Assembly: GCA_038065955.1 (NCBI GenBank)
Contig: JBBTPY010000003.1
Location: forward strand, 39,624-103,623
Direction: 5' to 3'
DNA: 64,000 bases
Origin: Patescibacteria group bacterium
GTDB taxonomy: Bacteria > Patescibacteriota > Minisyncoccia > UBA6257 > UBA9933
The translations under genes and the position numbers were made by a program. The notes under the pieces are model-generated. The model saw only the letters and a list, made by a program, of their open reading frames with translations, did not search any database and was not told where the DNA came from. This document shows, one piece after another, positions 7,920 to 63,797 of this stretch. Numbering within the stretch: position 1 is the stretch's first letter; every line of letters starts with the position of its first letter.

Positions 7920-7924
7920 AAAGT
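7893..7924 (+). repeat. heptamer tandem repeat GTTAAAA x4 spanning the rpsE stop
   Basis: gttaaag aa gttaaaa gttaaaa gttaaaa agtt. Confidence 0.85.
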
Positions 7925-7925
7925 T

Positions 7926-8345: not shown

Positions 8346-8383
8346 TAAGTAATAAGTAATAAGTAATAAGTAGTAAGGCAGTA
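8342..8383 (+). repeat. heptamer tandem repeat GTAATAA x4 plus degenerate units, between rplO and secY
   Basis: gtaataa x4, gtagtaa, ggcagta. Confidence 0.9.
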
Positions 8384-15744: not shown

Positions 15745-17565
15745 TTATAGTTTGTAAATAAATATGGAAGTTCCCGCTTTATAATCCGGTTCATAAGGAT
15801 TTTTTATTTCTTTCAGCCATTGATATTCGTCTTCGGGATTTCGCTGTTGGCCCGGGTGAAGTTTGCCTAAAGCGCCTTGCAGATTGTTTATTGAAATCGC
15901 CAGCCATTCAATATTATAATCTTTCGGATTGCCTTTTGACGATTGCCACTGTTCAAACTTATCGTTTAAATAATATTTCGGACTGCCGCCGCCGAAATAA
16001 TCAATGGCAATTTTATTAATTTTTTCGCCGGCGGGCGGATTTTCAACAAAATTTTTAAGCCGTTTCAAATCTTGCCCCCAATCGTAATTGGAATCAGTTA
16101 CGTATTTATAGCCGTTTTCAACGCCGCCGCTAATTTGGTTAAAGTAAGAAAGATAATAAGGAGCGCTTAAAAATGTTTCCGCTAAATACCAGATTATCAA
16201 AATAGCGATAACGGCAGATTTAAATATGACTTTTGAATTATAGTTTATCCATTTTTTGAGCGCTGAAGCGGCGAGAATATAAATAAACGGCATTGTTGGC
16301 ATTAAGTGTCTAATGCCGATGTTAAGCGGGCTTTTAATGCTGTAAAGCCAGTAGAAAATCGCGAATGACAGCATTGAAAATTCGGCAAAATGGTTGCCGA
16401 GATAGTCCATAAAAGTTTGTAGTTTGTAGTTTGTGGTTTGTAGTTTTCTGATAATACCCCAAACGCTTAAAAAAAGCGCGATAAAAATTAGAATTAACGA
16501 TGGAACGGGTTCTTTTAAAATAAAAACAATTGGGAAATAATACCACCAGCCGCCGGCCGACACTTCGCCTAAGAAATATCCGGTGTTTCCGCCGGAAGAG
16601 CGTTGAAGCACCATTAAAACTCCTAAAAGATATTGGCCGAGCGGCCTTAAAATTTTATTTCCGGCCATCCAGATATTTATTTCCGCCGGAGCGCCGGAAA
16701 AAGAAGTTAAAATAAATTTTGTGTCGGCGACTTGTTTTTCAATCGGATAATTTATAGTAAATAAAAAATAAATCGCATAGATTAAAATATAACCGATAAT
16801 AAAGATGGCTGAAATTGATTTAAAATAGCGCAGTCCTCGGATGGAAAATCGTTTTAATCGCGCCGAAGGAGCGGTTTGTCGCCAGTCGTGATAGATTTTC
16901 CATATTAAAAAAACAGTAATTAAAAATATAAAAAATGGAATAAGTAAAAAGGCGGAAAATTTCATCGACTGGGCGATGCCGAAAGCCAATCCAGCGAATA
17001 TTAAATGCCGGCGCGACTGTCCAAAAAGGAATTTTACGAAATAATAAGTGGCGATAAATATTCCTAAAGCCGCGCCAATGTCTGTGGTTACATAATGACC
17101 GTGAGTCAAGACTGTCGGCGAAAAAGCGAATAAAAATGTCGGAAATAATGCCCACCAGCGGCCAATCAGTTCTTTTGACCAGATATAAATGAAAATTATT
17201 AAAATTAACGTAAGGAGCATCGGGCCGAGCCGCGACCATTGAATGATTGTGTCGGCATTATTGCCTGATTCGTAAAGAAATTGCGCGCCGGCGGCCCATT
17301 GGCCGTTGATATCCGTTTGCCAAGGCGATTTGTCGGTTGGAAAGTTTAATTTTTGAAATAACAGCGGAAAAGCGGCTAAAGCTTTTACTAATGGCGGATG
17401 TTCGGGGTTTAAGCGAAAATCCAGGTATTTGACATAACCATAGCCGGCCGGAATATGGGCAAGCTCATCCATTGTGGCGGACTCTTGAAAAGACGCATTA
17501 AGCATTAAAGCAAATGAAACGGCGGCGATTAAATAAAGAAACAATAAAGAAAGATGTTTAGACAT
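15745..17565 (-). CDS. GT-C superfamily membrane glycosyltransferase (GT39/PMT/ArnT-like)
   Basis: 606 aa polytopic protein with DE motif in the first loop (ATMDELAH); internal AGTTTGT x5 tract. Confidence 0.7.
   Translation of the reverse strand: MSKHLSLLFLYLIAAVSFALMLNASFQESATMDELAHIPAGYGYVKYLDFRLNPEHPPLVKALAAFPLLFQKLNFPTDKSPWQTDINGQWAAGAQFLYESGNNADTIIQWSRLGPMLLTLILIIFIYIWSKELIGRWWALFPTFLFAFSPTVLTHGHYVTTDIGAALGIFIATYYFVKFLFGQSRRHLIFAGLAFGIAQSMKFSAFLLIPFFIFLITVFLIWKIYHDWRQTAPSARLKRFSIRGLRYFKSISAIFIIGYILIYAIYFLFTINYPIEKQVADTKFILTSFSGAPAEINIWMAGNKILRPLGQYLLGVLMVLQRSSGGNTGYFLGEVSAGGWWYYFPIVFILKEPVPSLILIFIALFLSVWGIIRKLQTTNYKLQTFMDYLGNHFAEFSMLSFAIFYWLYSIKSPLNIGIRHLMPTMPFIYILAASALKKWINYNSKVIFKSAVIAILIIWYLAETFLSAPYYLSYFNQISGGVENGYKYVTDSNYDWGQDLKRLKNFVENPPAGEKINKIAIDYFGGGSPKYYLNDKFEQWQSSKGNPKDYNIEWLAISINNLQGALGKLHPGQQRNPEDEYQWLKEIKNPYEPDYKAGTSIFIYKL
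16414..16448. repeat. heptamer tandem repeat AGTTTGT x5 inside the GT-C gene
   Basis: agtttgt agtttgt agtttgt ggtttgt agttttc. Confidence 0.9.
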
Positions 17566-32487: not shown

Positions 32488-32900
32488 TGGATTGTATTTT
32501 TTGTAAAATAATTAATAAGGAAATTCCGGCAAATATTATTCTTGAAGACGAATCGGCCTTGGTAATGTTGGATATTAATCCGAGAAGCCGGGGACACGCG
32601 ATAGTTTTGCCGAAAACGCATATTCAAAATATTTTAGAGCTGGCGGATAAAGACATTGAAGGAGTTTTTAAAATGGTTAAAAAGGCGACCGGTTTATTGG
32701 ATAAATCATTAAAGCCCGATGGCTTTACAATTGGAATTAACCATGGTAAAGTGAGCGGACAAACGGTTGCTCATCTGCATATTCATGTTATGCCGAGATG
32801 GTATTCTGACGGCGGCGGTTCAATTCATTCGGCGGTAAACAATCCGCCGAAAGAGTCAATTCAAGAAACAGCCGTAAAAATTTTAAATCCTAAATCCTAA
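32487..32900 (+). CDS. HIT-family (histidine triad) hydrolase
   Basis: HLHIHVMPR histidine triad; the 3' end carries a CCTAAAT/TAAATCC heptamer tract. Confidence 0.85.
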   Translation: MDCIFCKIINKEIPANIILEDESALVMLDINPRSRGHAIVLPKTHIQNILELADKDIEGVFKMVKKATGLLDKSLKPDGFTIGINHGKVSGQTVAHLHIHVMPRWYSDGGGSIHSAVNNPPKESIQETAVKILNPKS

Positions 32901-32918
32901 ATCCTAAATCCTAAATTA
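32884..32918 (+). repeat. heptamer tandem repeat TAAATCC x4-5 spanning the HIT stop codon
   Basis: taaatcc x4 then taaatta. Confidence 0.9.
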
Positions 32919-44334: not shown

Positions 44335-44877
44335 ATGATTGAGCAAAATCAAAAAAAATTAATAAAATGGCTGAGCGGCGTTGTTATCGCGGCCGCGGTT
44401 TTAAGCGTTTTAATTTTTACCGGCGTTTTGAATCCCGCGAAAATAAAAAAACTTTTCATGATCGAGCCGGACAGCCATTTGATGACTAACCGCAACGCTT
44501 ATGATATCGCTTTACTCGAAGCACAGAAATGGCAGCCGGATGCCAAACTGGCATTTATGGATTCTGGTTCAATTAGCGAAAGGGGTCGTTCCAATACGTG
44601 GAAAGCTATTTTTATCTCTTCAAAAGTTAAAGCAAAAGGATTTTCAATTGAAATTGAAGATTATAAAATAATTTTATTGGCTGAAATTATTTATAACGGT
44701 GTCGGCGCCGATTTTCCAACTAATATTATTTCTTCCGAAGACGCTATCAAGATGGTTCGCGCGACTAAAGGATATGAAGATGCGGAAATTTATGGAGCGG
44801 AAGTAATTTATATGGGTAATTTATGGTATTGGGGTGTAAAAACTTCCAAAGGAGTGGTAAGTGTGAAAGGAAAATAG
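44335..44877 (+). CDS. hypothetical membrane-anchored protein
   Basis: ORF 44194..44877 overlaps the upstream gene; the ATG at 44335 gives MIEQNQKK... with one N-terminal TM. Confidence 0.45.
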   Translation: MIEQNQKKLIKWLSGVVIAAAVLSVLIFTGVLNPAKIKKLFMIEPDSHLMTNRNAYDIALLEAQKWQPDAKLAFMDSGSISERGRSNTWKAIFISSKVKAKGFSIEIEDYKIILLAEIIYNGVGADFPTNIISSEDAIKMVRATKGYEDAEIYGAEVIYMGNLWYWGVKTSKGVVSVKGK

Positions 44878-44911
44878 TTTTATAATATACAATTTCACGT
44901 AATCAAGGGTT

Positions 44912-46192
44912 ATGAAAATGAAAATCGGGATATTTTTAATTTTTGCCGCTGTTTGCGGTTTTGCCGCGTTTTTATTTTTAGGCGGCGCGTTTTTTTCTCG
45001 GGTTGAACCGGTTGAAGCGGCGGAAGAAATGAAAACGCTTTCTTTTTTTGTCGGTCAGCAAACCAGCGCCGCTTCATCAGTCAGCTGGCCTTTCACTTTT
45101 TACGTCGGCGACGATATTTCCACTTCCACCAAAAGCGCGTTTTTTGAAATCAGCGGCATCAGTCCGTCAACGGCGAATTTAATTGCCACAACCACTTTAA
45201 GCGGCGGCAGCGGCAGTTGTTCCCTAAACAGAACTTTAGACAATAACGGCCGTTTAAATAAATTTAAAATTGTTTATGATGCCACGAATTGTATTGACGT
45301 TTCGGCAAAAGGCGAATATTCCAGAACTTTAAACGTTGTTTTTAACAATCCGGTTGACGCTCTTTCGGCGAAATTCGCCATTACTTACCGTTTTACCGCG
45401 CCGACCAGCAACGGTTCAACCGCCATAAAAACAATTTCTTATTCCGCCAATGAGGGAACCGCCAGTTCTTCCGTCCCGGCCGGCCAAAATATTGTTTTAA
45501 ATTTCAGCCCTTACATCGGCGATGAAATTTCCACTTCCACTAAAAGCGCGTTTTTTGAAATCAGCGGCGTCAGTTTGGCCGCCGGCGCTTCGGCGATTGA
45601 TTTATCTTTAGGCGGCGGCAGCGGCAGTTGTTCCGTAAATCGGACGCTGGATACGACCGGATTTATCAATAAATTTCACATTTTGTACAACGTCAACGAT
45701 TGTATTAATATTTTTTCAAAAGGGGAATACAGCCGTTCTTTGACGATTAACGCCAGCGGCGCGGCGGTTTACATTTATTCGGCGAAATTGGTTTTAACTT
45801 ATCAATTCACGCCGCCTTCGGCCGGCGGCTACTGGGCAACCGGCACTTTTTATTCGCCGATTTTTGACACGGGCGCCATCAACGGCGCGTCTTATAATTG
45901 GATTATGTGGAAAGGGACGCTTAACGGCGGGAACGGGAAAATAAGATTACAACTGGCGACTTCCAATTCTTCCGGAGGGCCGTGGACTTATATCGGAGAA
46001 ACGCCGGGTTGTGATTCTTCGGTTTATTTTGAACCGCTTACGGACATTTCCAAGGAAATAAAATGTTTTTCAAGCCATAATAATAAAAGATATTTCCGTT
46101 ATAAATTGATTATTTGCTCTTCCAGCGATTGTTCAGCGGCTGGAACTAATACGCCGCAAGTGAACGACATGATTGTGAATTGGAGCCCATAA
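44912..46192 (+). CDS. secreted protein with two tandem ~145-aa domain repeats (paralogous to the C-terminal module of the 1271-aa protein)
   Basis: signal peptide; repeats DDISTSTKSAFFEISG...ITYRFTAP and DEISTSTKSAFFEISG...LTYQFTPP. Confidence 0.6.
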   Translation: MKMKIGIFLIFAAVCGFAAFLFLGGAFFSRVEPVEAAEEMKTLSFFVGQQTSAASSVSWPFTFYVGDDISTSTKSAFFEISGISPSTANLIATTTLSGGSGSCSLNRTLDNNGRLNKFKIVYDATNCIDVSAKGEYSRTLNVVFNNPVDALSAKFAITYRFTAPTSNGSTAIKTISYSANEGTASSSVPAGQNIVLNFSPYIGDEISTSTKSAFFEISGVSLAAGASAIDLSLGGGSGSCSVNRTLDTTGFINKFHILYNVNDCINIFSKGEYSRSLTINASGAAVYIYSAKLVLTYQFTPPSAGGYWATGTFYSPIFDTGAINGASYNWIMWKGTLNGGNGKIRLQLATSNSSGGPWTYIGETPGCDSSVYFEPLTDISKEIKCFSSHNNKRYFRYKLIICSSSDCSAAGTNTPQVNDMIVNWSP

Positions 46193-46198
46193 ACGACA

Positions 46199-46258
46199 AC
46201 TGACATATGACATTTGACAATTGACAGATTGATAACAAATGACAACTGACATATGAAC
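46199..46258 (+). repeat. heptamer tract NNNTGAC x~8 (ATCTGAC-family orientation)
   Basis: aactgac atatgac atttgac aattgac agattga ... tgacaac tgacata. Confidence 0.8.
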
Positions 46259-46468
46259 AATTTTAATAAAATATTTAGATTTCGGGAATTTCAAGTTTAT
46301 AAAGATTCAAGGAAATTCAGCAATGAATTAAAGAATTTTTCCAAAAAAAAATTTCCAAGTGAAGAGAGGTTTTGTCTTTTATCTCAATTTTGGCGAGCGC
46401 TTGATTCTATAATTTTAAATATCGCCGAAGGAACCGACATTATTATCCCGTCAATTAACGGCTTTTAG
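46253..46468 (+). pseudogene. four-helix-bundle (23S rRNA IVS-type) protein gene, 3'-truncated
   Basis: FREFQVYKDSRKF...KKFPSEERFCLLSQFWRALDSIILNIAEG matches the 4HB family consensus but stops after NIAEG (about 70 of the expected about 120 aa). Confidence 0.5.
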
Positions 46469-46482
46469 AAAAAAATTATTAA

Positions 46483-47040
46483 ATGAACAAAATAAATAAA
46501 AGTAAAAGGTCAGATGTCAGATGTCAGATGTCAGATGTCAATTGTCAGATGTCTGGCTTTTCCCTGTTGGAACTCATTATCTACATCGCCATTTTTGGGA
46601 CTGTGGTTTTGGCGACGACGAGCGTTTTGGTGACGGTTTTTGAAGGACGCGATTCAACGAATTCGCGCTATGAAGTTTTACAAAATATCCGTTTCTCTTC
46701 GGAAAAAATCAGGCAATTGGTTTATGACGCTTCGTCTTTTGCTGTTTCCGGCGCCTGTCCGTTTAATATTTTGGAAACGACAATCGGTTCGGCGACAACG
46801 AGCGTGGCCATTAATAGCGGTATTTTAACGCTTACTTCCGGCGGAAGCAGTACGCCGCTTATCGCCGAAAGCGTAACCGCCACCAGCACTTCCGGCAATT
46901 GTTTGTTCGCGAAAATTTCCAATCCCGCTCCAGCCAAATCCACGCTTCAAATGCGGTTCACAATCAGTTATAATGATAACGGAAACCAGCAATTGAAATT
47001 TTCCGATGAAATCAAAACGACAATCAGCCAGAGACAATGA
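46483..47040 (+). CDS. type IV pilin-like protein (prepilin) with an unusually long repeat-encoded leader
   Basis: class III signal G|FSLLELIIYIAIFG; the 25-aa leader MNKINKSKRSDVRCQMSDVNCQMSG is encoded by (GTCAGAT)n. Confidence 0.75.
   Translation: MNKINKSKRSDVRCQMSDVNCQMSGFSLLELIIYIAIFGTVVLATTSVLVTVFEGRDSTNSRYEVLQNIRFSSEKIRQLVYDASSFAVSGACPFNILETTIGSATTSVAINSGILTLTSGGSSTPLIAESVTATSTSGNCLFAKISNPAPAKSTLQMRFTISYNDNGNQQLKFSDEIKTTISQRQ
46509..46557 (+). repeat. heptamer tandem repeat GTCAGAT x7 (4 perfect units, then 3 degenerate) inside the pilin leader coding sequence
   Basis: gtcagat x4, gtcaatt, gtcagat, gtctggc. Confidence 0.95.
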
Positions 47041-47043
47041 AAC

Positions 47044-47115
47044 AACTGACAACTGACATCTGACCGCTTAAATGTCATATGTCATATGTTAAATCACATG
47101 TTAAATGTCAAATAT
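47044..47115 (+). repeat. heptamer tracts that switch orientation (AACTGAC/ATCTGAC then ATGTCAT/GTCAAAT) across the start of ORF 47086
   Basis: aactgac aactgac atctgac cgcttaa atgtcat atgtcat atgttaa atcacat gttaaat gtcaaat. Confidence 0.85.
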
Positions 47116-47499
47116 CAAAAGGGCGTAATCGCTTTGCCTTCAATAATAATGATTTCATTTTTGGTTTTAATCGCCGGCATCGGCATCGCTTCCAGCGGAT
47201 TTTTTGAAAATATGATGAGTTACGGCGACGTTAATTCCAAAAAAGCCCTTGTTTACGCCGAAGCCGGCGCCGAAGACGCGTTTGAACGGCTGGTAAAAAA
47301 CAAAAATTGCTCCTGCTCTTCTTATTCTTTAAGTTTCAGCGACGGTTCCGCCGCGATTGCGGTTTCCGGCGGAGCGAGCAGTAAAACCGTCGTTTCCGAA
47401 GGGACGGTAAACGGCAAAAAAAGAAAGGTTCAGGTGACGGTTTCTTTTGATGCCAATGATGAAGCGACGCAAACCGGCTGGCAGGAGATTGTTGATTAA
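47086..47499 (+). CDS. hypothetical membrane protein in the pilus locus (possible minor pilin/assembly factor)
   Basis: 137-aa ORF with an N-terminal hydrophobic segment; the start lies inside a heptamer tract. Confidence 0.4.
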   Translation: MLNHMLNVKYQKGVIALPSIIMISFLVLIAGIGIASSGFFENMMSYGDVNSKKALVYAEAGAEDAFERLVKNKNCSCSSYSLSFSDGSAAIAVSGGASSKTVVSEGTVNGKKRKVQVTVSFDANDEATQTGWQEIVD

Positions 47500-47505
47500 A
47501 TTAAT

Positions 47506-49011
47506 ATGTTAAATACTTTTAAAAAATTGTTAAACCGTTTTAAGAATATTGATTTAAGCGGCTTATTGCATCACGAGGAAAAAATTGGCGGCTTGGCAAT
47601 TGACGAAAACGGCGTTTTTTTAACTTATCTTGTCAAAAATAAAGACGGGAAAGAAGAGGAAATATTTAAAAAAGAAATTTCTTTGCCTATCGGAACGATT
47701 GAAAATGGGATTTTGAAAAATCCGGAAGCGTTTTTGGCCGGGCTTAAGGAACTGCAAAAAAATAAACCGCCTTCAAAATCAATTATCGTTTCTTTGCCTT
47801 CGGCGAGCGTCCAGCCGTTTATTTTTGAATTTTTTCCTAATTTAAAACAAGAAGAAATCAATAACGCCGTTTCTTTGATAATTAATTCTTCTTTGCCTTT
47901 GCCGCCGGAAAAAATTTACGCCGATTGGGAAGAAATTAAAGACGAAAACCTTCAAAAGAAAAAAGTTTTATTGGGAATGGGGTTAAAAGAATTGATTGTT
48001 CCGTATTTGGAAGTCATTAAAAAAGCCGATTTCGCGCCGGTGGCTTTAGAAACCCACGGTTGGAGTTTGGGACGGCTGCTTGATAAAAATGAACAATCAA
48101 TGGCGCTTAATTTTGAATCCGGCGGCGCGGTTTTCAGCGTTTTTTCCGGCGGTTCGCCGGTTTTTCAATTTTATTTGCCGGATGCGGATAAAAATTTTCT
48201 GGAAAAAGCCGCCGTTTTCGCCGAGCGGATTATGTATTTTTTGGCTTCCGACAATGAATACGGCTTTAAAATTAAAAATTTTCTGCTTTTAGGAGCCAAT
48301 GAAATACAAAATGAATTTAAAAACATATTTCAAAAACGTTTGTCGTTGAAATTCAATAAAGAAGAAATGGCGTTTAGCGGCGGCGAATCGCCGAAAGCGC
48401 GAATTTTTTCCGCCGGCGCCGCCAAAAGGGGACTTTTGCCCAGATACCAGGACGCCATTTGCAGTTTAATGCCTATCGGCACGGAATCGGCTTACGAACG
48501 CCAGCGTTTTGTTTCGTTTCTTGATTTTTTTCAAAAATTCGCCATTGCTTTCGGAGGATTTTTTATTATTTTGTTTTTAGGAACTTTCCTTTTAATCAAT
48601 GTTGTTTCCCGCAATGCCGCCAAATCTTTAATTGAAGAACAGACGATTGTTTTGCCGGAATTGGCGGTCATTAAAGAAACCGCCGCGCTTTTTAACGAAA
48701 AAATGGAACAATTTTCGGCGATTGCCGCCAAATCTCCAAAATGGGAAAATTTATTCAACGAAATTGATAAACTGAACAATCCCGGGATGATAATCGGCAA
48801 TTTATCCGTTGCCGTCGCTCAACCGGTAACAATCAGCGGCGCGGCGCGGGACAGAGACAGCCTGCTTCAATTAAAATCAACTTTGGAAAATTCACCGGTT
48901 TTTACCGCGCCGCCTTTGCCGCTTTCCGCTTTAATCGACAAGGAAAATATCGCCTTTTCGTTTAATTTGGGGTTAAAAGACGGTGGATTATTGATATATA
49001 ATAGAGATTAG
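47506..49011 (+). CDS. pilM: type IV pilus assembly protein PilM fused to a PilN-like membrane segment
   Basis: N-terminal actin-like PilM region (GLAIDENGVFLTYL...); a TM (FAIAFGGFFIILFLGTFLLI) about 340 aa in, then a periplasmic domain. Confidence 0.65.
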   Translation: MLNTFKKLLNRFKNIDLSGLLHHEEKIGGLAIDENGVFLTYLVKNKDGKEEEIFKKEISLPIGTIENGILKNPEAFLAGLKELQKNKPPSKSIIVSLPSASVQPFIFEFFPNLKQEEINNAVSLIINSSLPLPPEKIYADWEEIKDENLQKKKVLLGMGLKELIVPYLEVIKKADFAPVALETHGWSLGRLLDKNEQSMALNFESGGAVFSVFSGGSPVFQFYLPDADKNFLEKAAVFAERIMYFLASDNEYGFKIKNFLLLGANEIQNEFKNIFQKRLSLKFNKEEMAFSGGESPKARIFSAGAAKRGLLPRYQDAICSLMPIGTESAYERQRFVSFLDFFQKFAIAFGGFFIILFLGTFLLINVVSRNAAKSLIEEQTIVLPELAVIKETAALFNEKMEQFSAIAAKSPKWENLFNEIDKLNNPGMIIGNLSVAVAQPVTISGAARDRDSLLQLKSTLENSPVFTAPPLPLSALIDKENIAFSFNLGLKDGGLLIYNRD

Positions 49012-50165: not shown

Positions 50166-51872
50166 TTACTCCGAGGAGACGCGTAAAATTTCTTCAATGG
50201 ACGTGAAGCCGGCGGAGATTTTTTCCAGTCCGTCTTCAAAGAGCGTTTTCATTCCTTCTTCGCGCGCTTTCTTGCGAATAACGTGGGCGGGCGAGTTTTT
50301 AAGAATTAAGTCTTTAACGGCGTCGTTGATGAAAATAATTTCAAATATTCCGATTTGCCCCCGATAGCCGCTGAAGCCGCAGACGGAACATCCCTTGGAG
50401 GCGTAAATAATTTTTGGCAGATTTTCTATTTTTAAATTAAGAGTTTTGGCTTGTTTGTTCAGCAATTTTTTGTTTTGTTCGTCTATTTCTTTGGAAGAAA
50501 TGCAAACCGCGCAGAGCCGACGAACCAATCGCTGGGCAATGGCGATATTAAGGGTGGACGCCAACAGAAACGGCTGGATGCCGAGTTCAATCAGGCGCGG
50601 CACGGTCGTCGGCGCGTCGTTGGTGTGTAGGGTGGACAAAAGCAAATGGCCGGTCATAGCGGCGTTAATGGCAATATCGGCGGTTTCCTCGTCTCTGATT
50701 TCGCCGATCATAATAATGTCCGGATTTTGGCGCATCAGGGACCGAAGGCCGGTGGCGAAAGTAATGCCGCCTTTAACATTGACCTGGGTCTGGTTTACCC
50801 GCGGAATATCGTATTCTATCGGGTCTTCAATGGTCGTAATATTCACTTTTGGCGTGTTTAAGATTTCTAAAATCGCGTAAAGAGTGGTGGTTTTGCCGGA
50901 GCCGGTCGGGCCGGTGACTAAAACCAAGCCGTGCGGTTTTTTGACGGCTTCGTTCAGTTTTTCCAGATTTTGGCGGGAAAATCCGAGCTCGGTTAAAGAC
51001 AGCGGCCGGAGAGAGCCTTTTAACAGCCGCATTTCGGCTTTTTCGCCGTGAAAAGTCGGGATTACCGAAACCCGGATATCAATAAATTGGTCTTCCAGTG
51101 GAAAACGAAAACGGCCGTCCTGAGGAGCGTTATGAATGTCTATTTGAAGATTGGAAACGACTTTGATTCTGGCAATTAAAATAGGGGAGATTTCTTTCGG
51201 CAAAGAAAGAATTTCCTGAAGAATTCCGTCCAGGCGGTAGCGGACCAAAAGTTTGTCCCTGAACGGTTCAAAATGAATATCCGAAGCGCCCAATGAGGCG
51301 GCGTGTTCAATGACGCTGTCTAAAATCCTGATAATAGGCACGGCTTCAACGATTTTGGAAATGTTGCCGGTTTCTTTAAGGCCGACGGTCGCTTTGATAT
51401 TTTCTTCAATAATTTTGTTAAAATCTTCGCCGATTTTTCTTTTATACGATTTTAAAGCGTATTTCAGACTTGCCGAGGTGGCCAGATAAACGTTCAGCCA
51501 AGCGTTTAATTTTAAACGAAGATAATTTATGGTTTCAAAATCGTTCGGGTCAGCCATCGCCAAAGAGCCGATTTTTTTCTCGGCGTCAAATTCAAAAAGA
51601 ATGACGCCGCGGCTTTTGGCGTATGATTCCGGAATAAGTTCAATAATGTCGGAATTGAGATTCAGCCGTTCCAATTTAACGCTCGGAACTTCCAAAAAAT
51701 CGGCAAGGGAATCCGTAAGGTTTTGTTCGGAAATGGCGCCGCGGCCTATTAAGACTTCGGTAATCGGCCGGTTGGAGCGCAGAGATTCGTTTTCGGCGGC
51801 AATTAATTCTTCTTCCGCCACAACGCCGGAATCAATAATGATTTTTTTAATATCGTCTTTGGCGAGATGCAT
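50166..51872 (-). CDS. pilB: type IV pilus assembly ATPase PilB (GspE family)
   Basis: Walker A GPTGSGKTTT; Asp and His boxes; N-terminal GSPII domains; ORF extends to a TTG at 51923, but the ATG at 51872 (MHLAKDD) is the likely start. Confidence 0.9.
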   Translation of the reverse strand: MHLAKDDIKKIIIDSGVVAEEELIAAENESLRSNRPITEVLIGRGAISEQNLTDSLADFLEVPSVKLERLNLNSDIIELIPESYAKSRGVILFEFDAEKKIGSLAMADPNDFETINYLRLKLNAWLNVYLATSASLKYALKSYKRKIGEDFNKIIEENIKATVGLKETGNISKIVEAVPIIRILDSVIEHAASLGASDIHFEPFRDKLLVRYRLDGILQEILSLPKEISPILIARIKVVSNLQIDIHNAPQDGRFRFPLEDQFIDIRVSVIPTFHGEKAEMRLLKGSLRPLSLTELGFSRQNLEKLNEAVKKPHGLVLVTGPTGSGKTTTLYAILEILNTPKVNITTIEDPIEYDIPRVNQTQVNVKGGITFATGLRSLMRQNPDIIMIGEIRDEETADIAINAAMTGHLLLSTLHTNDAPTTVPRLIELGIQPFLLASTLNIAIAQRLVRRLCAVCISSKEIDEQNKKLLNKQAKTLNLKIENLPKIIYASKGCSVCGFSGYRGQIGIFEIIFINDAVKDLILKNSPAHVIRKKAREEGMKTLFEDGLEKISAGFTSIEEILRVSSE

Positions 51873-51921
51873 GTTGATAACAAATAACTTATTTATATAA
51901 TAACATAACCGGATTAAAAAC

Positions 51922-51955
51922 AAAAACTCCGGTTATCTTATAATCCGGAGTTTTT
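51922..51955 (-). terminator. bidirectional rho-independent terminator/attenuator between the major pilin gene and pilB
   Basis: aaaaactccgg-ttatcttataat-ccggagttttt. Confidence 0.75.
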
Positions 51956-51974: not shown

Positions 51975-52679
51975 TTAATGTTGATTAGCAGATGCTTGTC
52001 CGCCACCCATAATTGTCAATTTTGTGCCAACTTCATATAAAGAGCTGTTATTGCCGCCGTCTTTCGTCATTTTAGCTCCAATAGAAGAACTTTCCAGTCT
52101 GGCATTAATTTCAAAAGTAAGATCGCTGGAATAACAAGTATAGCGATAAAAAAGATCAGTATATCGAACATCGGAAACTGAGCCATCAACAAAAGAGTTT
52201 GTCGGGTCAAGCGGCATATCGGAAATCGGCGAACCGCCGACTAAACTTGAAAGGTTAACCGGAATCCAACCTGTGCCGTCAACCAAACTTGAACTGGCTA
52301 CCGTTCTTTGGGTTGAAGTTGGGTATGATGTTGCGCTATCAAGTGTTGCATCTGTAATCGCTGCGCCCGGGCTGTCTGATGGATAACTATAATTAATTCC
52401 ATCGCCGCTTGCCCATGATGCGGAATCTTTACAAGTCGTATTGCTTCCGCTATTACCTAAATATATTGTGCTTGTAGTTTTAGTGATATAAAGCGCGATG
52501 GCGGTTTTCATGGTCGCTAAATCCGAAACTCTTTGGGCGTCCCGCGTTTCTCTTAATGTTTCGGCCGGGTTAAGGACGAAAATAGCCACTGCGGCTAAAA
52601 TAGCCATAATGGCGATAACGATTAAAAGCTCAAGTAATGTGAAACCTTTTTTGGGCGATATTGAATTATTGTTAGTCAT
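51975..52679 (-). CDS. type IV pilin (likely major pilin)
   Basis: canonical prepilin signal KKG|FTLLELLIVIAIMAILA; 234 aa; followed by an attenuator hairpin. Confidence 0.85.
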   Translation of the reverse strand: MTNNNSISPKKGFTLLELLIVIAIMAILAAVAIFVLNPAETLRETRDAQRVSDLATMKTAIALYITKTTSTIYLGNSGSNTTCKDSASWASGDGINYSYPSDSPGAAITDATLDSATSYPTSTQRTVASSSLVDGTGWIPVNLSSLVGGSPISDMPLDPTNSFVDGSVSDVRYTDLFYRYTCYSSDLTFEINARLESSSIGAKMTKDGGNNSSLYEVGTKLTIMGGGQASANQH

Positions 52680-56077: not shown

Positions 56078-57369
56078 AAATTTTTCTTTAATTCTTCAAG
56101 TTCTTTTTTTAATTCTATCATTTTTAATTCTCTGCCAATAGTGAGATTTTTGAATTTTTCAAGCTCCGCCAGTTTTTCTTCTATTTTCACGTCTTTTTCT
56201 TTTAATTCTTTCTGGTTTTTTTCAATATTATTAAGCATTTCGTTGAAAATTTCGCCGAGAGAACCGATTTCGTCTTTGGATTTTATGTTTGTTCGGGCGC
56301 TGAAATTATTTTCGGAAATTTTTTTCGCGATTTCGGCGATTGACGTCAGGCCTTTTAAAAGCCAATTACTCAATAAGGCGATGCCGGCAATAGTTAAAAT
56401 TAAAATAAAAATTCCGCCAAAAATAATCCGCTCTTGAATTTTTTTAAGCAGAGACAAAATTTCCGCCGATTGAGCTTCCACTATTAAAACAATCTCGTCT
56501 TTTTCAATACACATTGACGCTCCTAAAACCTTTTTGCCGTCATAATTCAAATATTCGCCGGCCATTTCCAGATTATTTTCAAAACAGGCGCTAACCGGCT
56601 CAGTGTCAACTTTATGTTTTAAAATATTGTATTCAATAAAGCGGGATTGGGTAATCATCAGCCGGTCTTTGTTTACCAGATAAATTTCCGCGGTTTGATA
56701 TTCGTCAAAAAAGGCGGCGCCGGTAAGCGCTCCTTTTTCTTTTTGCCATTTGCCGCTTAAGAGAGCGCTTAATCTGTCGGTGTTTACGAAATGGAGCAGC
56801 ATTACGGCGTCAAGGGGAACGAATTTTTTGTCCGCGGATTCTTTGGTTGAAAAAATTCTGGCGGAAATGTGAATCATTGGTTCGGAGCTTTCATATTCTT
56901 CGTAAACTACCGGAGCCACGAGCGCTTCTCCGAATCCGGCGGCAATGGCTTCATGAAATCTTATGTTTTCGTCGCTTTCGTCTTCGCCGATTCTGTCGGC
57001 CAAAGAAGAAGATATGACAATTCCGTCTTTATTTAGTATGTCAATAATAACCACTTCCGGGTCGTAAATAATCTTTTTTTCTTTCAGATAAAAATTCAGA
57101 TTTTTAACGGATTCTTTTTTGCCCGATAAAATCTCTTCAACGGCGTTTCGGATATAACCGTCCGAAGACCAGTCAATGGTTCTTGTTTTTAGCGATTCAA
57201 TAAAAGAAAAATAAGAGCCTTCGCTGGTTTCCGCCAAAAGTTGAAAATTATCAATCGTTCGAGCTTTGAAATAATTTTTTAAGTAAGCGTTTAAATAAAA
57301 AGTCAGGCCGGCAATCATTAAAACAATAACGCCGGAAAAAAATAAAATAAATTTTATTCGGAGATTCAT
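56074..57369 (-). CDS. HAMP-domain membrane sensor protein (no kinase domain)
   Basis: N-terminal TM, periplasmic Cache-like region, second TM, HAMP (EIGSLGEIFNEM), coiled coil. Confidence 0.55.
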   Translation of the reverse strand: MNLRIKFILFFSGVIVLMIAGLTFYLNAYLKNYFKARTIDNFQLLAETSEGSYFSFIESLKTRTIDWSSDGYIRNAVEEILSGKKESVKNLNFYLKEKKIIYDPEVVIIDILNKDGIVISSSLADRIGEDESDENIRFHEAIAAGFGEALVAPVVYEEYESSEPMIHISARIFSTKESADKKFVPLDAVMLLHFVNTDRLSALLSGKWQKEKGALTGAAFFDEYQTAEIYLVNKDRLMITQSRFIEYNILKHKVDTEPVSACFENNLEMAGEYLNYDGKKVLGASMCIEKDEIVLIVEAQSAEILSLLKKIQERIIFGGIFILILTIAGIALLSNWLLKGLTSIAEIAKKISENNFSARTNIKSKDEIGSLGEIFNEMLNNIEKNQKELKEKDVKIEEKLAELEKFKNLTIGRELKMIELKKELEELKKNL

Positions 57370-57427
57370 AATTTAAGCGTCAAATATCGGCTGTTTATTT
57401 TTTATAATATTATTATATAATAATATT

Positions 57428-58657
57428 ATGCCGCTGTATAGTTATAAAGCCGTTGATAAAAATGGTTCGCCGACATCGGGAGAAATTTTGGCGGACAGCC
57501 GCGAAGAAGCGGTGGAAAATCTTTCGCGCGACGGATTATTGCCGATTATCGTTGAAGAAAAATCCGTCGGCAAGCTTTCGCAGTTTTCCGATTTGGCGCA
57601 ATTTTTTCCGTTTTTTCAGAAAATCGGCGCCATTGACAAAATTCTCTTAACCCGTTATTTGGCCGCGATTTTGAAAGCCGGCATCGGGTTGGCGGAAGCT
57701 TTGGAAATTATTTTAAACGACGCGAAAAAACCTTTGATTAGAAAAATTCTTCTGGAAATTAAAGCCGGCGTGGAAAGAGGGGAACCGCTTTCATCAATGT
57801 TCGCCGATTATCCGCGATATTTTTCCCCGATTTTTGTCGGGATGATAAAAGCCGGCGAACTTTCGGGCAGTTTGGAAAGCGCTCTGGAAAATCTTTCCGG
57901 CCAATTAATAAGGGATTACGACTTGTTAAAAAGGGTGAGAATGGCGATGATTTATCCGCTGATTCTTTTAATCGGTTCCGCCGGCATTATCGTGCTGATG
58001 ATGACTTTTGTTTTGCCGCGGATGGCGAAAGCTTTCAAAGGCATGCTCGCCGAATTGCCCCTGATTACGAGATTTTTTATCGCTTTAAGCGATTATTTAA
58101 GCAGAAGCCCGATTTTAACGATTTCCGTTTTTTTTATTTTAATCGCCGCGGGCTTTTATTTTTCCCGTTCGGTTTTCGGCAAAAAAATCATTTTCCGCGT
58201 TTTTGAAAAATTGCCGGTCGCTTCGGAACTTGTCAAGAAATTGGCACTGGCGCGTTTCAGCCGAACTTTCAAAAATCTTTTGGGAAGCGGCGTTTCGGCT
58301 ATTGAAGCGATTGAAATGAGCGCTTTAACGGTCGGCAATCCGACTTATCAGAAGTCGTTTTTGAATATTATGGAAGAATTAAAAAAGGGGTCAAATTTTT
58401 CCGCGGTTTTCAAATCGCGTCCCGCTCTTTACCCGAGTTTTTTTGCCAATATCATCGCCATCGGCGAACGAACCGGCACTTTGGAAAAATCGCTGGAAAC
58501 TTTAAGCGCGTTTTACGAAGAAGAAGTGGACGGACTTTTGAAAAATCTGGTTTCGCTTTTGGAACCGCTGCTGATTTTTGCAATGGGTATAATTGTGGCA
58601 ATGGTGGCTTTGTCCGTGCTTTTGCCGATATTCCGAATGGTCAGAATGTTTCAGTGA
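57428..58657 (+). CDS. pilC: type IV pilus/T2SS platform protein PilC (GspF family)
   Basis: 409 aa; duplicated GspF domains; 3 TM. Confidence 0.85.
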   Translation: MPLYSYKAVDKNGSPTSGEILADSREEAVENLSRDGLLPIIVEEKSVGKLSQFSDLAQFFPFFQKIGAIDKILLTRYLAAILKAGIGLAEALEIILNDAKKPLIRKILLEIKAGVERGEPLSSMFADYPRYFSPIFVGMIKAGELSGSLESALENLSGQLIRDYDLLKRVRMAMIYPLILLIGSAGIIVLMMTFVLPRMAKAFKGMLAELPLITRFFIALSDYLSRSPILTISVFFILIAAGFYFSRSVFGKKIIFRVFEKLPVASELVKKLALARFSRTFKNLLGSGVSAIEAIEMSALTVGNPTYQKSFLNIMEELKKGSNFSAVFKSRPALYPSFFANIIAIGERTGTLEKSLETLSAFYEEEVDGLLKNLVSLLEPLLIFAMGIIVAMVALSVLLPIFRMVRMFQ

Positions 58658-58666
58658 GGGTAAATT

Positions 58667-58695
58667 GACATCTAACATCTGACAACTGACATATT
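58667..58695 (+). repeat. heptamer tract AATTGAC ATCTAAC ATCTGAC AACTGAC upstream of a pilin gene
   Basis: direct reading; reverse-complement family of GTCAGAT. Confidence 0.85.
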
Positions 58696-58715
58696 AATAA
58701 TTTTAATAAAATATA

Positions 58716-59237
58716 ATGAATCAGATAAATAAATGTCAAAAGTCAGATGTCAGATGTCGTGTCAGCTGTCAGTTGTCTGGCTTCTCTCTTTTAGAATTGA
58801 TTTTGGTAATCGGAATTCTGGTTATTATCAGCGGTGTTGTTTCGCCATTTTTATTCGGCGGCAAAACTTCAATTGAAGTGGAGGAAGAAGCGAAAAAAAT
58901 AGCCGGCGTTTTGCGGCTGGCGCAAAATAAGGCGATGAGCCGCGAAGATGGATTAAGCTGGGGAGTTCATTTTGACAACATTACTTCAACGGAGCCGTTT
59001 TATGATTTTTTTCAGGGGAACAGCTATACGGCCGGCACTTCTACGGAACGATATTATTTATCCGGCGTCGTTGTTTTTCAAACGCCGGCAAGCGGCACTT
59101 CAACCGACATAATTTTTATTAAGCGCAGCGGCAGTTTGGCAAACGGAACGACTACGACTATTGCCGTAAAATCGCTTTCGCCGGAAATTATTAAAAATGT
59201 CATTATTTATCCAAACGGCAGGGTTAACGCGCAGTAA
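58716..59237 (+). CDS. type IV pilin-like protein with long repeat-encoded leader
   Basis: G|FSLLELILVIGILVI; 22-aa leader MNQINKCQKSDVRCRVSCQLSG; paralogous to 46483. Confidence 0.75.
   Translation: MNQINKCQKSDVRCRVSCQLSGFSLLELILVIGILVIISGVVSPFLFGGKTSIEVEEEAKKIAGVLRLAQNKAMSREDGLSWGVHFDNITSTEPFYDFFQGNSYTAGTSTERYYLSGVVVFQTPASGTSTDIIFIKRSGSLANGTTTTIAVKSLSPEIIKNVIIYPNGRVNAQ
58742..58781 (+). repeat. degenerate GTCAGAT heptamer repeat inside the pilin leader coding sequence
   Basis: gtcagat gtcagat gtcgt gtcagct gtcagtt gtctggc. Confidence 0.9.
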
Positions 59238-59239
59238 TC

Positions 59240-59917
59240 ATGAAAAATAAAGGCCAAATTTTGTCGGAACTTTTAATCGCCATTGCCGTCGGCGTGGTTT
59301 TAGCCGTTGTCGGGGCCCAGCTTATAATCGTCAGTTTGACTTCAACTAAAACTTCCAAAGAAAAAAGCGAGGCAATCGGTTTGGCGCAGGAAGGAATGGA
59401 GGCGACAAGGGCTATTATCCGCGGCAATGACGCGACATCGCAGGGTTGGAACAGAATTTATTTGCCGCCGGACGGAACGGGCAACGCTTCAACTTCAAAA
59501 GGAACCAACAGCCCTTGGCATCCGGAAATTATCGGCAATGTCTGGCAATTGGTTTCAAGCACCGAAACCATAGTTTTGGCGGGAGAGACATACACGAGAA
59601 AAATTATCATTGAAAATGTCTGCCGCAACGATACCGACGGAACGATAAGCGGCATTTCTCCTTGTACCGGAGGAAATTCGGACGACCCGACCACTCAAAA
59701 AATCACCGTCAGCGTTTCCAAAACGGACGCGCCGGACGTAAACTTAATCGCTTATATGAGCCGTTATATAAATGAATCAATGCTCCAAACCGGCTGGAAC
59801 GGGGGATTAAACGACGGGCCGTTTTCCGCCACTTCCACGACTAACACCAATTACGGCGCCAATACCGAAACAACTAAACTCGATTTAATAACAGAAATTA
59901 AATTAAAAACGCAGTAA
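59240..59917 (+). CDS. pseudopilin/minor pilin (prepilin-type N-terminal domain)
   Basis: MKNKGQILSELLIAIAVGVVLAV is a prepilin-like N-terminus; 225 aa. Confidence 0.7.
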   Translation: MKNKGQILSELLIAIAVGVVLAVVGAQLIIVSLTSTKTSKEKSEAIGLAQEGMEATRAIIRGNDATSQGWNRIYLPPDGTGNASTSKGTNSPWHPEIIGNVWQLVSSTETIVLAGETYTRKIIIENVCRNDTDGTISGISPCTGGNSDDPTTQKITVSVSKTDAPDVNLIAYMSRYINESMLQTGWNGGLNDGPFSATSTTNTNYGANTETTKLDLITEIKLKTQ

Positions 59918-59924
59918 AATTTAA

Positions 59925-59941
59925 CTGCGGGACTTGGATTC
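59925..59941. repeat. 17-bp direct duplicate of the tRNA-Gln 3' end (att-like)
   Basis: ctgcgggacttggattc is identical to 60293..60309. Confidence 0.8.
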
Positions 59942-60021
59942 TCTTCGGCCTTCGGCTCGCATTGAGCTCGCCGAAATGCTCAGAGCAAGTCATCCAAGCC
60001 CACAATAAATCGTCAAACTCA

Positions 60022-60276
60022 TTACAAGCTATTATGTATTAAGGCAAATTTCTTCTTCCTACTCCATCCTTTAAGTTGCCGCTCTCGTTTTGCGGCTTCT
60101 GTTTTTGAATTAAATTGCTCTTTATAAACCATTTCCAATTTAGAAAACTTTTTTGTAAAAAATGATTTCTTATTTCTGTGCTCTATAAATCTAGACTCTA
60201 AATCATTTGTCATACCGACGTAAAAAGTTTTCTTATCGCAATTTAATATATAGATATACCACATAATAGCTTGCAC
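60022..60276 (-). CDS. GIY-YIG nuclease family protein
   Basis: 84 aa: YIYILNCDKKTFYVGMTNDLESRFIEHRN...ALIHNSL matches the GIY-YIG fold motifs. Confidence 0.8.
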   Translation of the reverse strand: MQAIMWYIYILNCDKKTFYVGMTNDLESRFIEHRNKKSFFTKKFSKLEMVYKEQFNSKTEAAKRERQLKGWSRKKKFALIHNSL

Positions 60277-60292: not shown

Positions 60293-60363
60293 CTGCGGGA
60301 CTTGGATTCGAACCAAGATAGATGCCTTCAAAGGGCACAGTCCTACCGTTAGACGATCCCGCA
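60293..60363 (-). tRNA. tRNA-Gln (anticodon TTG), U1-A72, G73, no encoded CCA
   Basis: reverse complement folds as acceptor TGCGGGA/TCCCGCA, anticodon stem GTGCC/GGCAT with loop CTTTGAA, T arm CTTGG-TTCGAAT-CCAAG. Confidence 0.8.
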
Positions 60364-62480: not shown

Positions 62481-63797
62481 ATGCGGTATTATGTCTTCGG
62501 TTTTTTATTTTTAACGGTCGCGGCGGGCGCCTCTTTTTTTGTTTTGACGAAAAATAATAATATTGAAATTATTACAGATATTGTTGATTTTACCGGTAAG
62601 GTTAATAGTTCTTCAACCGTAAATAATACCAATAACGAATCGGTTGTTAAAAATATTGATATTGAAAATCAAAAGCCGTTAAGCAATCCGCCAGAAACTA
62701 TTAAGGCGATTTATTTGACCGGCTGGTCGGCTGGCAGTTCCAAAAAAATAGATTATCTCGTGAATCTGGCGAAAGAAACAGAAATAAACGCCGTGGTCAT
62801 TGACATTAAAGATTACTCCGGCTACATCGCTTATGACATAGATAACGAAGAAATTGAAAAATACAAAGCCAAAAAAATAATGATTCCGAAAATAAACGCT
62901 TTGATTAAAAAACTTCACGATGAAGGCATTTATGTTATTGCCAGAATCACGGTTTTTCAGGACCCTGTTTTGGCGAAAGCCCGACCGGATTTGGCAATTC
63001 ACTCCAAAGCAAAGTGTCAAGTGTCAGGTGTCAAGTGTCAGGTGTCGCCGTCAACTCTTTGGCTTGACAATAAAAAACTCGCCTGGATTGACCCGGCCGC
63101 CGAAGAAGCGTGGAATTATAATATTACCATCGCCAAAGACGCGGCAAGCAGGGGATTTGACGAAATAAATTTTGATTATATCCGTTTCGCTTCGGACGGC
63201 GATTTGAAAGATATGATTTTTCCATCAACACAGATAGACACAGATAAAACGCAGATAAACACAGATAATAATTATAACTCGGTAGCTTTAAGAAGAAAAG
63301 TTATCAAAAGTTTTTTTAAATATTTAAGAGAACAATTGCCGAATATAAAAATTTCAGCGGATTTATTCGGTTTAGTCACCGTAAATAAAGACGATATGGG
63401 AATCGGCCAGATTATTGAAGACGCTTATGAATATTTTGATTATGTTTCTCCAATGGTTTACCCGTCGCATTACGCCAAAGGATTTATCGGTTATCAAAAT
63501 CCGGCGAAATATCCGTATGAAGTGATAAAATATTCAATGGATAGCGCTCTGTCGCGACTAACGACTCACAACTTACGACTTACAACAGCGACTTCCACAA
63601 CTATATCTACAACTACTTCGTCGTTGGTCAAACTCCGTCCCTGGCTTCAGGATTTCAATTTAGGGGCGAAATATGACGCAAAAATGGTAAAAGAGCAAAT
63701 TCAGGCGGTTTATGATGCCGCTTCAAGCACTCCGGAACTGGCAAACGGATGGATGTTGTGGAATCCGGCGAATAATTATACGCGCGACGCGCTTTAA
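62481..63797 (+). CDS. putative secreted glycoside-hydrolase-like TIM-barrel protein (YngK/DUF4015-like)
   Basis: signal anchor; IKAIYLTGWSAG...INAVVIDIKDYSGYIAYD motif; three internal tandem-repeat tracts. Confidence 0.45.
   Translation: MRYYVFGFLFLTVAAGASFFVLTKNNNIEIITDIVDFTGKVNSSSTVNNTNNESVVKNIDIENQKPLSNPPETIKAIYLTGWSAGSSKKIDYLVNLAKETEINAVVIDIKDYSGYIAYDIDNEEIEKYKAKKIMIPKINALIKKLHDEGIYVIARITVFQDPVLAKARPDLAIHSKAKCQVSGVKCQVSPSTLWLDNKKLAWIDPAAEEAWNYNITIAKDAASRGFDEINFDYIRFASDGDLKDMIFPSTQIDTDKTQINTDNNYNSVALRRKVIKSFFKYLREQLPNIKISADLFGLVTVNKDDMGIGQIIEDAYEYFDYVSPMVYPSHYAKGFIGYQNPAKYPYEVIKYSMDSALSRLTTHNLRLTTATSTTISTTTSSLVKLRPWLQDFNLGAKYDAKMVKEQIQAVYDAASSTPELANGWMLWNPANNYTRDAL
63014..63055 (+). repeat. 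heptamer tandem repeat GTGTCAA/GTGTCAG x6 inside the coding sequence
   Basis: gtgtcaa gtgtcag gtgtcaa gtgtcag gtgtcgc cgtcaac; encodes KCQVSGVKCQVSPS. Confidence 0.9.
63229..63270 (+). repeat. about 10-bp tandem repeat (cagata-rich) inside the coding sequence
   Basis: cagatagaca cagataaaac gcagataaac acagataata; encodes QIDTDKTQINTDNN. Confidence 0.8.
63555..63620 (+). repeat. about 12-bp tandem repeat (tacgact-tacaac-like) inside the coding sequence
   Basis: cgactaacgactcacaacttacgacttacaacagcgacttccacaactatatctacaactacttcg; encodes RLTTHNLRLTTATSTTISTTTSS. Confidence 0.8.

Follow-up and report, generated by a model that had tools for sequence, protein, structure and literature searches.

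The stretch of DNA analyzed here, referred to as the window, comprises 64,000 nt from a Patescibacteria group bacterium (assembly GCA_038065955.1, contig JBBTPY010000003.1, positions 39,624 to 103,623 of the forward strand). The window, whose G+C content is 40%, has a match in a contig from well H52 of the Hainich aquifer, and the closest relatives of its proteins are found in the candidate phyla radiation (CPR)/Patescibacteria. It contains two minor type IV pilin genes whose predicted N-terminal leaders read a tandem array of the heptamer GTCAGAT. Translated, the open reading frame (ORF) at 46483–47040 begins with MNKINKSKRSDVRCQMSDVNCQMSG|FSLLEL and that at 58716–59237 with MNQINKCQKSDVRCRVSCQLSG|FSLLEL, where the bar marks the predicted cleavage site. 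Both have a Gly at −1, a hydrophobic helix and a Glu at +5, as expected for type IV pilins. The profile matches, all below the curated cut-offs, were to PF07963/N_methyl for pilin 1 (E 1.4e-4) and to TIGR02532 (E 0.0074, just below the cut-off) and GspH (E 2.5e-7) for pilin 2; these N_methyl and GspH/GspJ/ComG-type matches confirm that both products are type IV pilin-like. The comparisons described below indicate that the GTCAGAT tract is not a pilin feature, and that it would be one arm of an inverted pair of arrays left by a degenerate cassette with a four-helix-bundle (4HB) gene. The features at these sites are as follows, with putative cassette assignments.

46194–46251, plus strand: upstream arm of cassette 1, (TGACANN)n, with TGA in all three frames; inverted partner of 46508–46554
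46253–46468, plus strand: truncated 4HB gene (PF05635/TIGR02436), profile positions 1–50 of 106
46447–46499, plus strand: relic of the 4HB gene 3′ end (...TAFRKKLLNEQNK*), in a frame that differs from that of the N-terminal half; placed by local alignment in comparison with locus L017
46483–47040, plus strand: minor pilin 1, longest ORF 185 aa, GspJ/ComGE-like N-terminus; orthologs P0016–P0025
46483–46557, plus strand: putative prepilin leader of pilin 1, 25 aa; Gly(−1) codon at 46555–46557
46509–46553, plus strand: downstream arm of cassette 1, (GTCAGAT)x6.4, open in three frames
47042–47119, plus strand: hairpin without a 4HB gene, (TGACAAC)n at 47042–47065 and (ATGTCAN)n at 47070–47119; the first codons of pilin-like gene 3 lie in the second arm
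47086 or 47098 to 47499, plus strand: pilin-like gene 3, MLNHMLNVKYQKG|VIALPS (...KYQKG|VIALPS)
58666–58692, plus strand: upstream arm of cassette 2, TGACATC/TAACATC/TGACAAC, immediately 3′ of the PilC stop
58693–58732, plus strand: loop of cassette 2, 40 nt, with the first ≈8 and last ≈6 4HB codons; the 4HB ATG is changed to ATT, and ATG 58716 lies here
58733–58778, plus strand: downstream arm of cassette 2, a degenerate TGTCANN array
58716–59237, plus strand: minor pilin 2, GspH-like

An earlier note on this DNA had described leaders of 25 and 22 aa at 46483 and 58716, encoded entirely by the repeat. The lengths are confirmed by translation, and Tandem Repeats Finder returned (GTCAGAT)x6.4 at 46509–46553 with 89% matches and a degenerate counterpart at 58733–58777. 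The arrays encode 16 of the 25 leader codons in pilin 1 and 16 of 22 in pilin 2, with peptides such as SDVR and CQMSDVNCQMSG, but not the whole leader, since the first residues (MNKINKSKR in pilin 1 and MNQINK in pilin 2) derive from the 4HB gene relic's 3′ end. The alternative in-frame starts that the note had pointed out, which would give a 3-aa leader (MSG|F), are indeed present as ATG 46549 in pilin 1 and TTG 58773 in pilin 2; another ATG in pilin 1, at 46528, would give a 10-aa leader. The note had overlooked pilin-like gene 3, which has an array-encoded start as seen for pilins 1 and 2, and also the inverted arrays that accompany the tracts.

A search with the pattern TGTCANNTGTCANNTGTCA (three phased TGTCANN units, at most one mismatch) gave 19 matches in the window and none in 100 dinucleotide shuffles. 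We could thereby reject an origin of the arrays by chance, and as independent assemblies carry the identical sequence, also an origin by artefact. Every TGTCA array has an inverted partner (TGACANN)n upstream, the arm pairs being 46194–46251/46508–46554, 58666–58692/58733–58758 and 47042–47065/47070–47091. RNA folding of 46180–46575 pairs both arms of cassette 1 (−93.3 kcal/mol, z −4.4 against shuffles), and the cassette 2 hairpin, with the ATG of pilin 2 in its loop, reaches −39.7 kcal/mol (z −4.5), so that stem-forming terminal inverted repeats surround the PF05635 reading frame or what is left of it. The hairpin in front of pilin-like gene 3 is weaker (−21.2 kcal/mol, z −2.4). The two orientations also differ in their coding properties. 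Every unit of the TGACA arm contains TGA, and all three frames are therefore closed, whereas the TGTCA arm has no stop in any frame and, as GTCAGAT, supplies an ATG every 7 nt.

Other roles for the arrays found little in their favor. An Rfam scan of the window returned two tRNAs only and no known RNA family at the arrays. Scans for promoter and terminator consensus sequences in 44800–47600 gave nothing above shuffles; in 57300–60100 promoter-like sites were modestly above shuffles, mainly on the minus strand. TTGACA within the units resembles a −35 box but is poorly spaced from any −10 box. The downstream arms hold two short terminator-like stems, for which the array itself accounts, and a terminator role was rejected. 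The Logan contigs L007 and L008 both terminate within the GTCAGAT array, which shows that heptamer arrays break short-read assemblies.

Between the arms of cassette 1, the sequence at 46253–46468 matches Pfam PF05635 (E 1.4e-10) and NCBIfam TIGR02436 (E 2.8e-8). Because the match covers less than half of the profile, we regard this gene as a pseudogene. Alignment with intact relatives showed 46253–46499 to be this gene, with an internal stretch deleted and the frame broken as a result. The ATG of pilin 1 lies across the Asn and Glu codons of the relic as A-ATG-A (AAA TTA TTA AAT GAA CAA AAT AAA TAA). The loop of cassette 2 could be aligned at both ends with the window's own 4HB gene ends, with 33 of 35 positions identical at the 5′ end. 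As read from the sequence, the window would thus hold a decay series, with an internally deleted cassette (46194–46554), a nearly deleted one (58666–58778) and a bare hairpin (47042–47119).

Intact forms of the cassette were found in relatives. Loci L017/L018 and L106 carry, at the site orthologous to that of pilin 1, a TGACA array, a 128-aa 4HB gene and a TGTCA array, followed by G|VSLLEL in L017/L018 and by G|TSLLEL in L106. The 4HB protein of L017 reads MNNFNKIFRFREF...LTAFRKKLLNEPNK*. Locus L107 likewise has an intact cassette before a pilin-1-like gene. Empty sites were found as well: in L012 just 7 nt separate the PilC stop from ATGAAAGCA|TTT, and in L019 the pilin begins MKG|F. The L019 ortholog of pilin-like gene 3, also with an empty site, begins MNFIRSQRG|VMALPS. 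Most pilin orthologs have conventional leaders, which are 3–12 aa long in P0017–21, P0002 and P0006–11, and the leaders seen include MRKYQKG|F, MKG|F, MKKQKG|F, MKNKQKG|F, MKHKNYKSEG|F, MKA|F, MKRFKTG|Y, MSKQRG|V and MRG|F. The alignment of orthologs that the earlier note had proposed thus shows a lineage-specific leader, with MKG|F, MKA|F, MRKYQKG|F and MKKQKG|F in close orthologs.

Two further types of cassette occupy the same pilin sites. One, present in L009, L011, L015 and L107, has a different 4HB gene (MKTQTYKDLIVWQK...) between CGAGTAG/CTACTCG arrays, and the other, in L106, has yet another 4HB gene with TAACTKA arrays. Four different minor pilins carry leaders that stem from these two types, STRYSLNSKFSxKG| among them. 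The second 4HB gene of L106 (120 aa, weak bAvd match) lies directly before the ortholog of pilin-like gene 3, and is surrounded by TAACTTA/TAACTCA/TAACTGA arrays and their inverse (L106 1365–1435 and 1800–1850). Judged from the sequence, this gene appears to tie the published TAACTGA repeats, described below, to the 4HB cassettes. A smaller change was observed in L015 (2231–2300), where the leader of the pilin-3 ortholog has a 27-nt in-frame insertion of ATTCGCC/AAATTCT heptamers relative to L019 (3004–3040). It reads MYFIR[HSPNSKFSG]QRG|V compared with MNFIRSQRG|V, and has no inverted partner upstream.

The cassette is not restricted to pilins. More than 1000 homologs were found for the 4HB protein of L017, with 66–91% identity among the best 120, and those with source names come from several CPR phyla and one from Ignavibacteria. 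We surveyed 72 genomic loci encoding relatives of this protein, among them 25 from CPR and 42 from Bacteroidota. Period-7 arrays flank the gene on both sides in 19/25 CPR and 18/42 Bacteroidota loci, compared with 4% of control segments, taken singly. In 14 of the 25 CPR loci, and in about half of the loci overall, the two arms complement each other (duplex z < −3 for the 14), and the upstream arm shuts all three frames in 17 of the 25. The insertion sites are co-directional gene junctions such as pilC-pilin (6/29), pilB-pilC (7/29) and def-fmt, and also the starts of dnaE, tsf, glmS, atpD, pyrH and rplK. The downstream ORF at these sites is typically open back through the array.

Arrays of this kind were also seen elsewhere in the window. 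Solo forward arrays lie at three co-directional ORF junctions, 7892–7926 (GTTAAAA), 8340–8377 (AAGTAAT/AAGGCAG/TAGGCGT) and 32884–32916 (TAAATCC). All three have TAA or TAG in every frame, the preceding ORF terminates within the array, and another ATG comes about 0–16 nt further on. In L009, the CGAGTAG-type cassette has an upstream arm similar to the array at 8340–8377. A TGTCA-orientation array at 14770–14801 within the seryl-tRNA synthetase (SerRS) ORF (13687–14946) encodes ...YRSSVRGQMSKVDF... just 5′ of the codons for a conserved motif, FVHTLNG, and has the look of an array inserted in frame into a loop. The DUF4015 glycosyl-hydrolase-like ORF (62481–63797) contains three short tandem arrays, at 63012–63046, 63227–63268 and 63557–63603; (AAGTGTC)x5 is translated into KCQVSGVKCQVS, a 10-nt unit into TQIDTDKTQINTD and a 7/14-nt unit into LTTHNLRLTT. 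Finally, (AGTTTGT)x4.7 at 16414–16446 encodes ...LQTTNYKLQT... in a minus-strand ORF for a 606-aa membrane protein (15745–17565). The arrays within the SerRS, DUF4015 and membrane-protein ORFs are in the open orientation.

We consider it probable, at roughly 70%, that a 4HB cassette landed before the minor pilins and has since decayed, and that the GTCAGAT tract is its downstream arm and now codes for the pilin leaders. The cassette would consist of a PF05635 gene of ≈125 aa between two inverted heptamer arrays, the upstream TGACANN arm closed in three frames and the downstream TGTCANN arm (often ...CAGATGTCA...) open, with an ATG per 7 nt. Such cassettes would have been inserted exactly between the stop of the preceding gene and, in several minor type IV pilin genes of this CPR lineage, the Gly(−1) region, replacing the ancestral leader of 3–12 aa. 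Translation of the pilin may then begin at the ATG within the last 4HB codons, which is AU-rich, unpaired and situated in the hairpin loop, and the ribosome would pass through the open array. Prepilin peptidase is predicted to cleave the 22–25-aa leader at G|F, and as the leader is removed there, the mature pilin would be unchanged. Pilin 5′ ends may therefore be tolerant landing sites. By analogy with the terminal stem of the RNase III-cut, 4HB-encoding intervening sequences (IVS) of rRNA, the arms could pair in the transcript. We have moderate confidence that the long leaders are translated. They are probably real but incidental, being tolerated because prepilin peptidase removes them.

A different possibility is that translation starts at ATG 46549 and TTG 58773 (MSG|F), with the upstream array being part of the 5′ untranslated region (UTR), as a structured leader or an RNase III site; the long leader would then be an ORF-calling artefact of an array open in all frames. 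The orthologs with MKG|F, MKA|F and MRG|F show that 3-aa leaders work in this lineage, and RNase III cleavage of the stem, if it took place as it does in the rRNA IVS (PMC4990558), would remove the distal ATG from the pilin mRNA. The earlier note had proposed to look for Shine-Dalgarno motifs and at start-codon usage, and here the start context separates the candidates. Shine-Dalgarno motifs precede only 2 of 36 long ORFs in this genome, where starts have an AT fraction of 0.79 ± 0.13 and an unpaired probability of 0.47 ± 0.11. The distal ATGs (46483 and 58716) are AT-rich (0.95–1.00) and unpaired (0.67–0.86), with 0.95 and 0.78–0.86 for 46483, and fit the AU-rich, unpaired context. The inner starts (46528, 46549 and 58773) do not, with AT fractions of 0.45–0.60 and unpaired probabilities of 0.17–0.44 (0.17–0.33 for the inner ATGs of pilin 1); in the full-hairpin fold the proximal starts are predicted to be paired (unpaired 0.19–0.32).

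The reading frame argues in the same direction. The ATG in the 4HB tail is in frame with the pilin in 8/8 TGTCA-type loci, with leaders of 19–26 aa and distances from the ATG to the Gly of 54, 54, 63, 69, 72, 72, 75 and 75 nt (p = 1.5e-4 if the loci are independent). At L107 the distal ATG is the only in-frame start, and a start after it is thus not available. The CTACTCG-type arrays have no ATG, and the pilins behind them in L009, L011, L015 and L107 (pilin 3) are readable only from upstream; internally deleted 4HB remnants hold the frame into the pilin in L015 (44-aa leader) and in L107 pilin 3 (35 aa). Considering all this, we find a start at MSG|F rather unlikely. We also scanned metagenomes for junctions between the 4HB tail and pilins with the pattern AATGAAYNNNATAAATAAN{25,55}TGTCNGGNTTY, and this returned the same Hainich population and three chance matches, two of them identical. 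As the pattern was too narrow, the frame test rests on the eight loci.

Several points weigh against our interpretation. The eight loci of the frame test are partly orthologous, so that the statistic overstates their independence and the p-value is less extreme than stated. An in-frame ATG or TTG at −3 (MSG|F) is retained in six of the eight, which also speaks for the short leader, as does the presence of 3-aa leaders in orthologs. Use of the distal start codon is itself inferred from the sequence only. The arms are 84–85% complementary, scarcely beyond what the shared 5-nt core provides, and there is no covariation at the two variable positions; we therefore make no claim of selection for an RNA stem. 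No recombinase is present, which bears on the insertion step, and gene conversion between paralogous pilin 5′ ends could also have spread the arrays.

In the earlier note it was also suggested that the start, and hence the leader length, depends on the repeat copy number. This would make the heptamer tract a contingency locus, in which slipped-strand changes in copy number move the frame or the start and thereby switch or tune the minor pilins, as for the 7-nt repeat of hmw in Haemophilus influenzae. The unit length is not a multiple of three, the genes concerned are for surface structures, a heptamer simple sequence repeat within an RNase III-processed 5′-UTR hairpin offers a precedent (PMC12721329), and the two Logan contigs that end within the array could be seen in the same light. 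Yet every complete copy from other samples and wells (L001–L006, L101 and L105) has the same copy number and sequence at each of the two sites, apart from single-nucleotide polymorphisms, and the arrays are made up of mixed, imperfect units, a composition that suppresses slippage. An ATG is available in every frame, so that the gain or loss of one unit would not silence the gene, the same arrays occur before or inside housekeeping genes (fmt, tsf and SerRS), and relatives show in-frame lengths only. The dependence on copy number was thus not borne out, and phase variation is highly improbable here. Still less probable is a sequence-specific role of the SDVRCQMS-type leader, for example as a Cys-containing recognition or regulatory peptide. 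The motif does recur in the two paralogs and in several relatives, but its conservation is at the nucleotide level, with a fixed TGTCA core and two free positions, and one leader reads the same array in all three frames. Other cassettes give unrelated peptides at these sites (STRYSLNSKFSxKG|, LNSKSYILNS and NLKPKTLNLKP), and close orthologs lack the motif entirely.

In many CPR bacteria the 4HB gene lacks its stop and forms a single ORF with the pilin, joined to it in frame by an array-encoded linker; dozens of protein clusters are fusions of this kind. P0004 (291 aa) and P0005 (296 aa) are uninterrupted 4HB-linker-pilin ORFs, and among the best 150 matches in a search with P0004 we found 37 more proteins of >200 aa with an N-terminal 4HB. 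Together with P0022 this gives a sample of 40 fusions. A canonical G|F.L.E pilin site follows a low-complexity, array-like linker in 23/40, of which 20 belong to the best 150 matches; in about 8 others the site is pilin-like or degenerate, the pilin-3 type being one of these, and in about 7 the 4HB precedes another transmembrane or signal segment; none of the 40 is fused to a recognizable cytoplasmic enzyme. The linkers are usually without Met. Seven proteins (P0216, P0217, P0227, P0232, P0258, P0259 and P0262) are 4HB-linker fusions to non-pilin proteins of 417–691 aa, which have a hydrophobic, signal-like start (...YILNPS..A.A) followed by a large, extracellular-looking region. The nature of the fusion partners fits a tolerance of additions at cleavable or transmembrane N-termini. 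Whether the fused ORFs are translated whole, with prepilin peptidase acting as a polyprotein processor that releases a cytoplasmic 4HB protein of ≈130–150 aa and the mature pilin in a 1:1 ratio, is a tentative idea that we regard as possible but doubtful. If true, the prepilin leader would be about 10 times longer than any described, and the selfish gene would have a new expression route.

The cassette shares features with several known systems. The IVS of 23S rRNA in Coxiella, Leptospira and Xanthomonas have S23p ORFs (PF05635) in terminal stems cut by RNase III (PMC4990558). In the cassette, as in the IVS, inverted repeats form a long stem whose loop holds a PF05635 ORF; both elements are sporadic and apparently horizontally spread, and the ORF of each is prone to decay (PMC4990558). 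23S_rRNA_IVP ORFs are also found in rRNA insertions of CPR. Unlike an IVS, which is excised by RNase III from a helix of 23S or 16S rRNA, the cassette lies at junctions between protein-coding genes, and Rfam found no rRNA in the window. Its arms are tandem heptamers with a stop-rich/open asymmetry, and the downstream arm codes for the next gene.

The arrays also resemble the intergenic TAACTGA heptamer repeats of Beggiatoaceae, Cyanobacteria and Bacteroidetes (MacGregor 2015, PMC4679880). These are tandem 7-mers a few nt from start codons in genomes with few canonical ribosome-binding sites, with stops in all frames in the forward direction, and translatable and occasionally inside ORFs in the reverse (PMC4679880). 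The TGACANN upstream arms and the solo arrays at junctions fit this description, with a different unit sequence. The TAACTGA repeats are described as direct repeats, with one indirect (inverted) repeat only (PMC4679880), whereas the cassette arrays are inverted pairs around a gene, with the reverse arm supplying leader codons. Neither "23S" nor "four helix" turned up in a term search of that paper, nor did any connection with pilins. In open-access PMC and bioRxiv we found no description linking heptamer arrays, PF05635 and pilins, and none of inverted heptamer arrays that bracket PF05635 genes or become pilin leaders.

With respect to pilins, the leaders, which the earlier note had called three to four times the usual length, are long relative to type IVa pilins only; they fall within the range of type IVb leaders (≈15–30 aa; PMC3927602) and are not an unusual class of prepilin leader. 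They share with the type IVb prepilins TcpA, BfpA and CofA a length of 22–25 aa, the Gly(−1), a positive N-terminus and the presumed removal by prepilin peptidase. The mature pilins are however type IVa/minor-pseudopilin-like, with F at +1, E5 and 151–160 aa (GspH/GspJ/ComG-like), compared with a mature size of 180–200 aa or 40–50 aa for type IVb. We therefore do not assign them to type IVb, as the leader length fits only if the distal ATG is used and the mature size does not fit. The leader of pilins 1 and 2 is moreover recent and repeat-derived, unlike type IVb leaders, and is not found in close orthologs, which have leaders of 3–7 aa. With hmw of H. influenzae the pilin arrays share a 7-nt tandem repeat that makes up one side of a long RNA hairpin, placed immediately before a gene for a surface protein (PMC12721329). 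The hmw repeat is perfect, hypervariable and non-coding, whereas the pilin array is imperfect, invariant in the population, has an inverted partner and lies inside the ORF.

The type IV pilus machinery is encoded nearby, in a cluster with PilB, PilC, PilM/N/O and the major pilin:

47506–49011: PilM/PilN, with PilO downstream
50166–51923: PilB-like ATPase
51975–52679, minus strand: major pilin, starting MTNNNSISPKKG|FTLLEL, with a 12-aa leader
57428–58657: PilC (T2SSF)

A motif search of the window gave no PilD-like GxGDxK ORF. The PilM-like and PilN-like domains at 47506–49011 are joined in a single ORF of 501 aa; in the strain variant L006 (5595–7096) this region is divided into ORFs of 112 and 377 aa. 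An 84-aa ORF on the minus strand at 60022–60276, GIY-YIG-like by eye only (...WYIYILNCDKKTFYVGMTNDLESRFIEH...), adjoins a tRNA gene (60293–60363) and may be a small mobile or homing element.

Two observations that had lacked an explanation, the heptamer arrays by start codons and the puzzling PF05635 "23S rRNA IVS" proteins, appear to belong to a single cassette at gene junctions in CPR and Bacteroidota, whose arms follow a coding logic of stops in all frames upstream and open frames with ATGs downstream. This would also explain a recurrent annotation problem, with odd repeat-encoded N-termini, 4HB fusions and contig breaks. The hypothesis that the IVS is a mobile element becomes testable outside rRNA. 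For the pilins, the finding suggests that cleavable N-terminal leaders are safe harbors for insertions, and it offers a test case for the tolerance of prepilin peptidase to long, even domain-sized, leaders.

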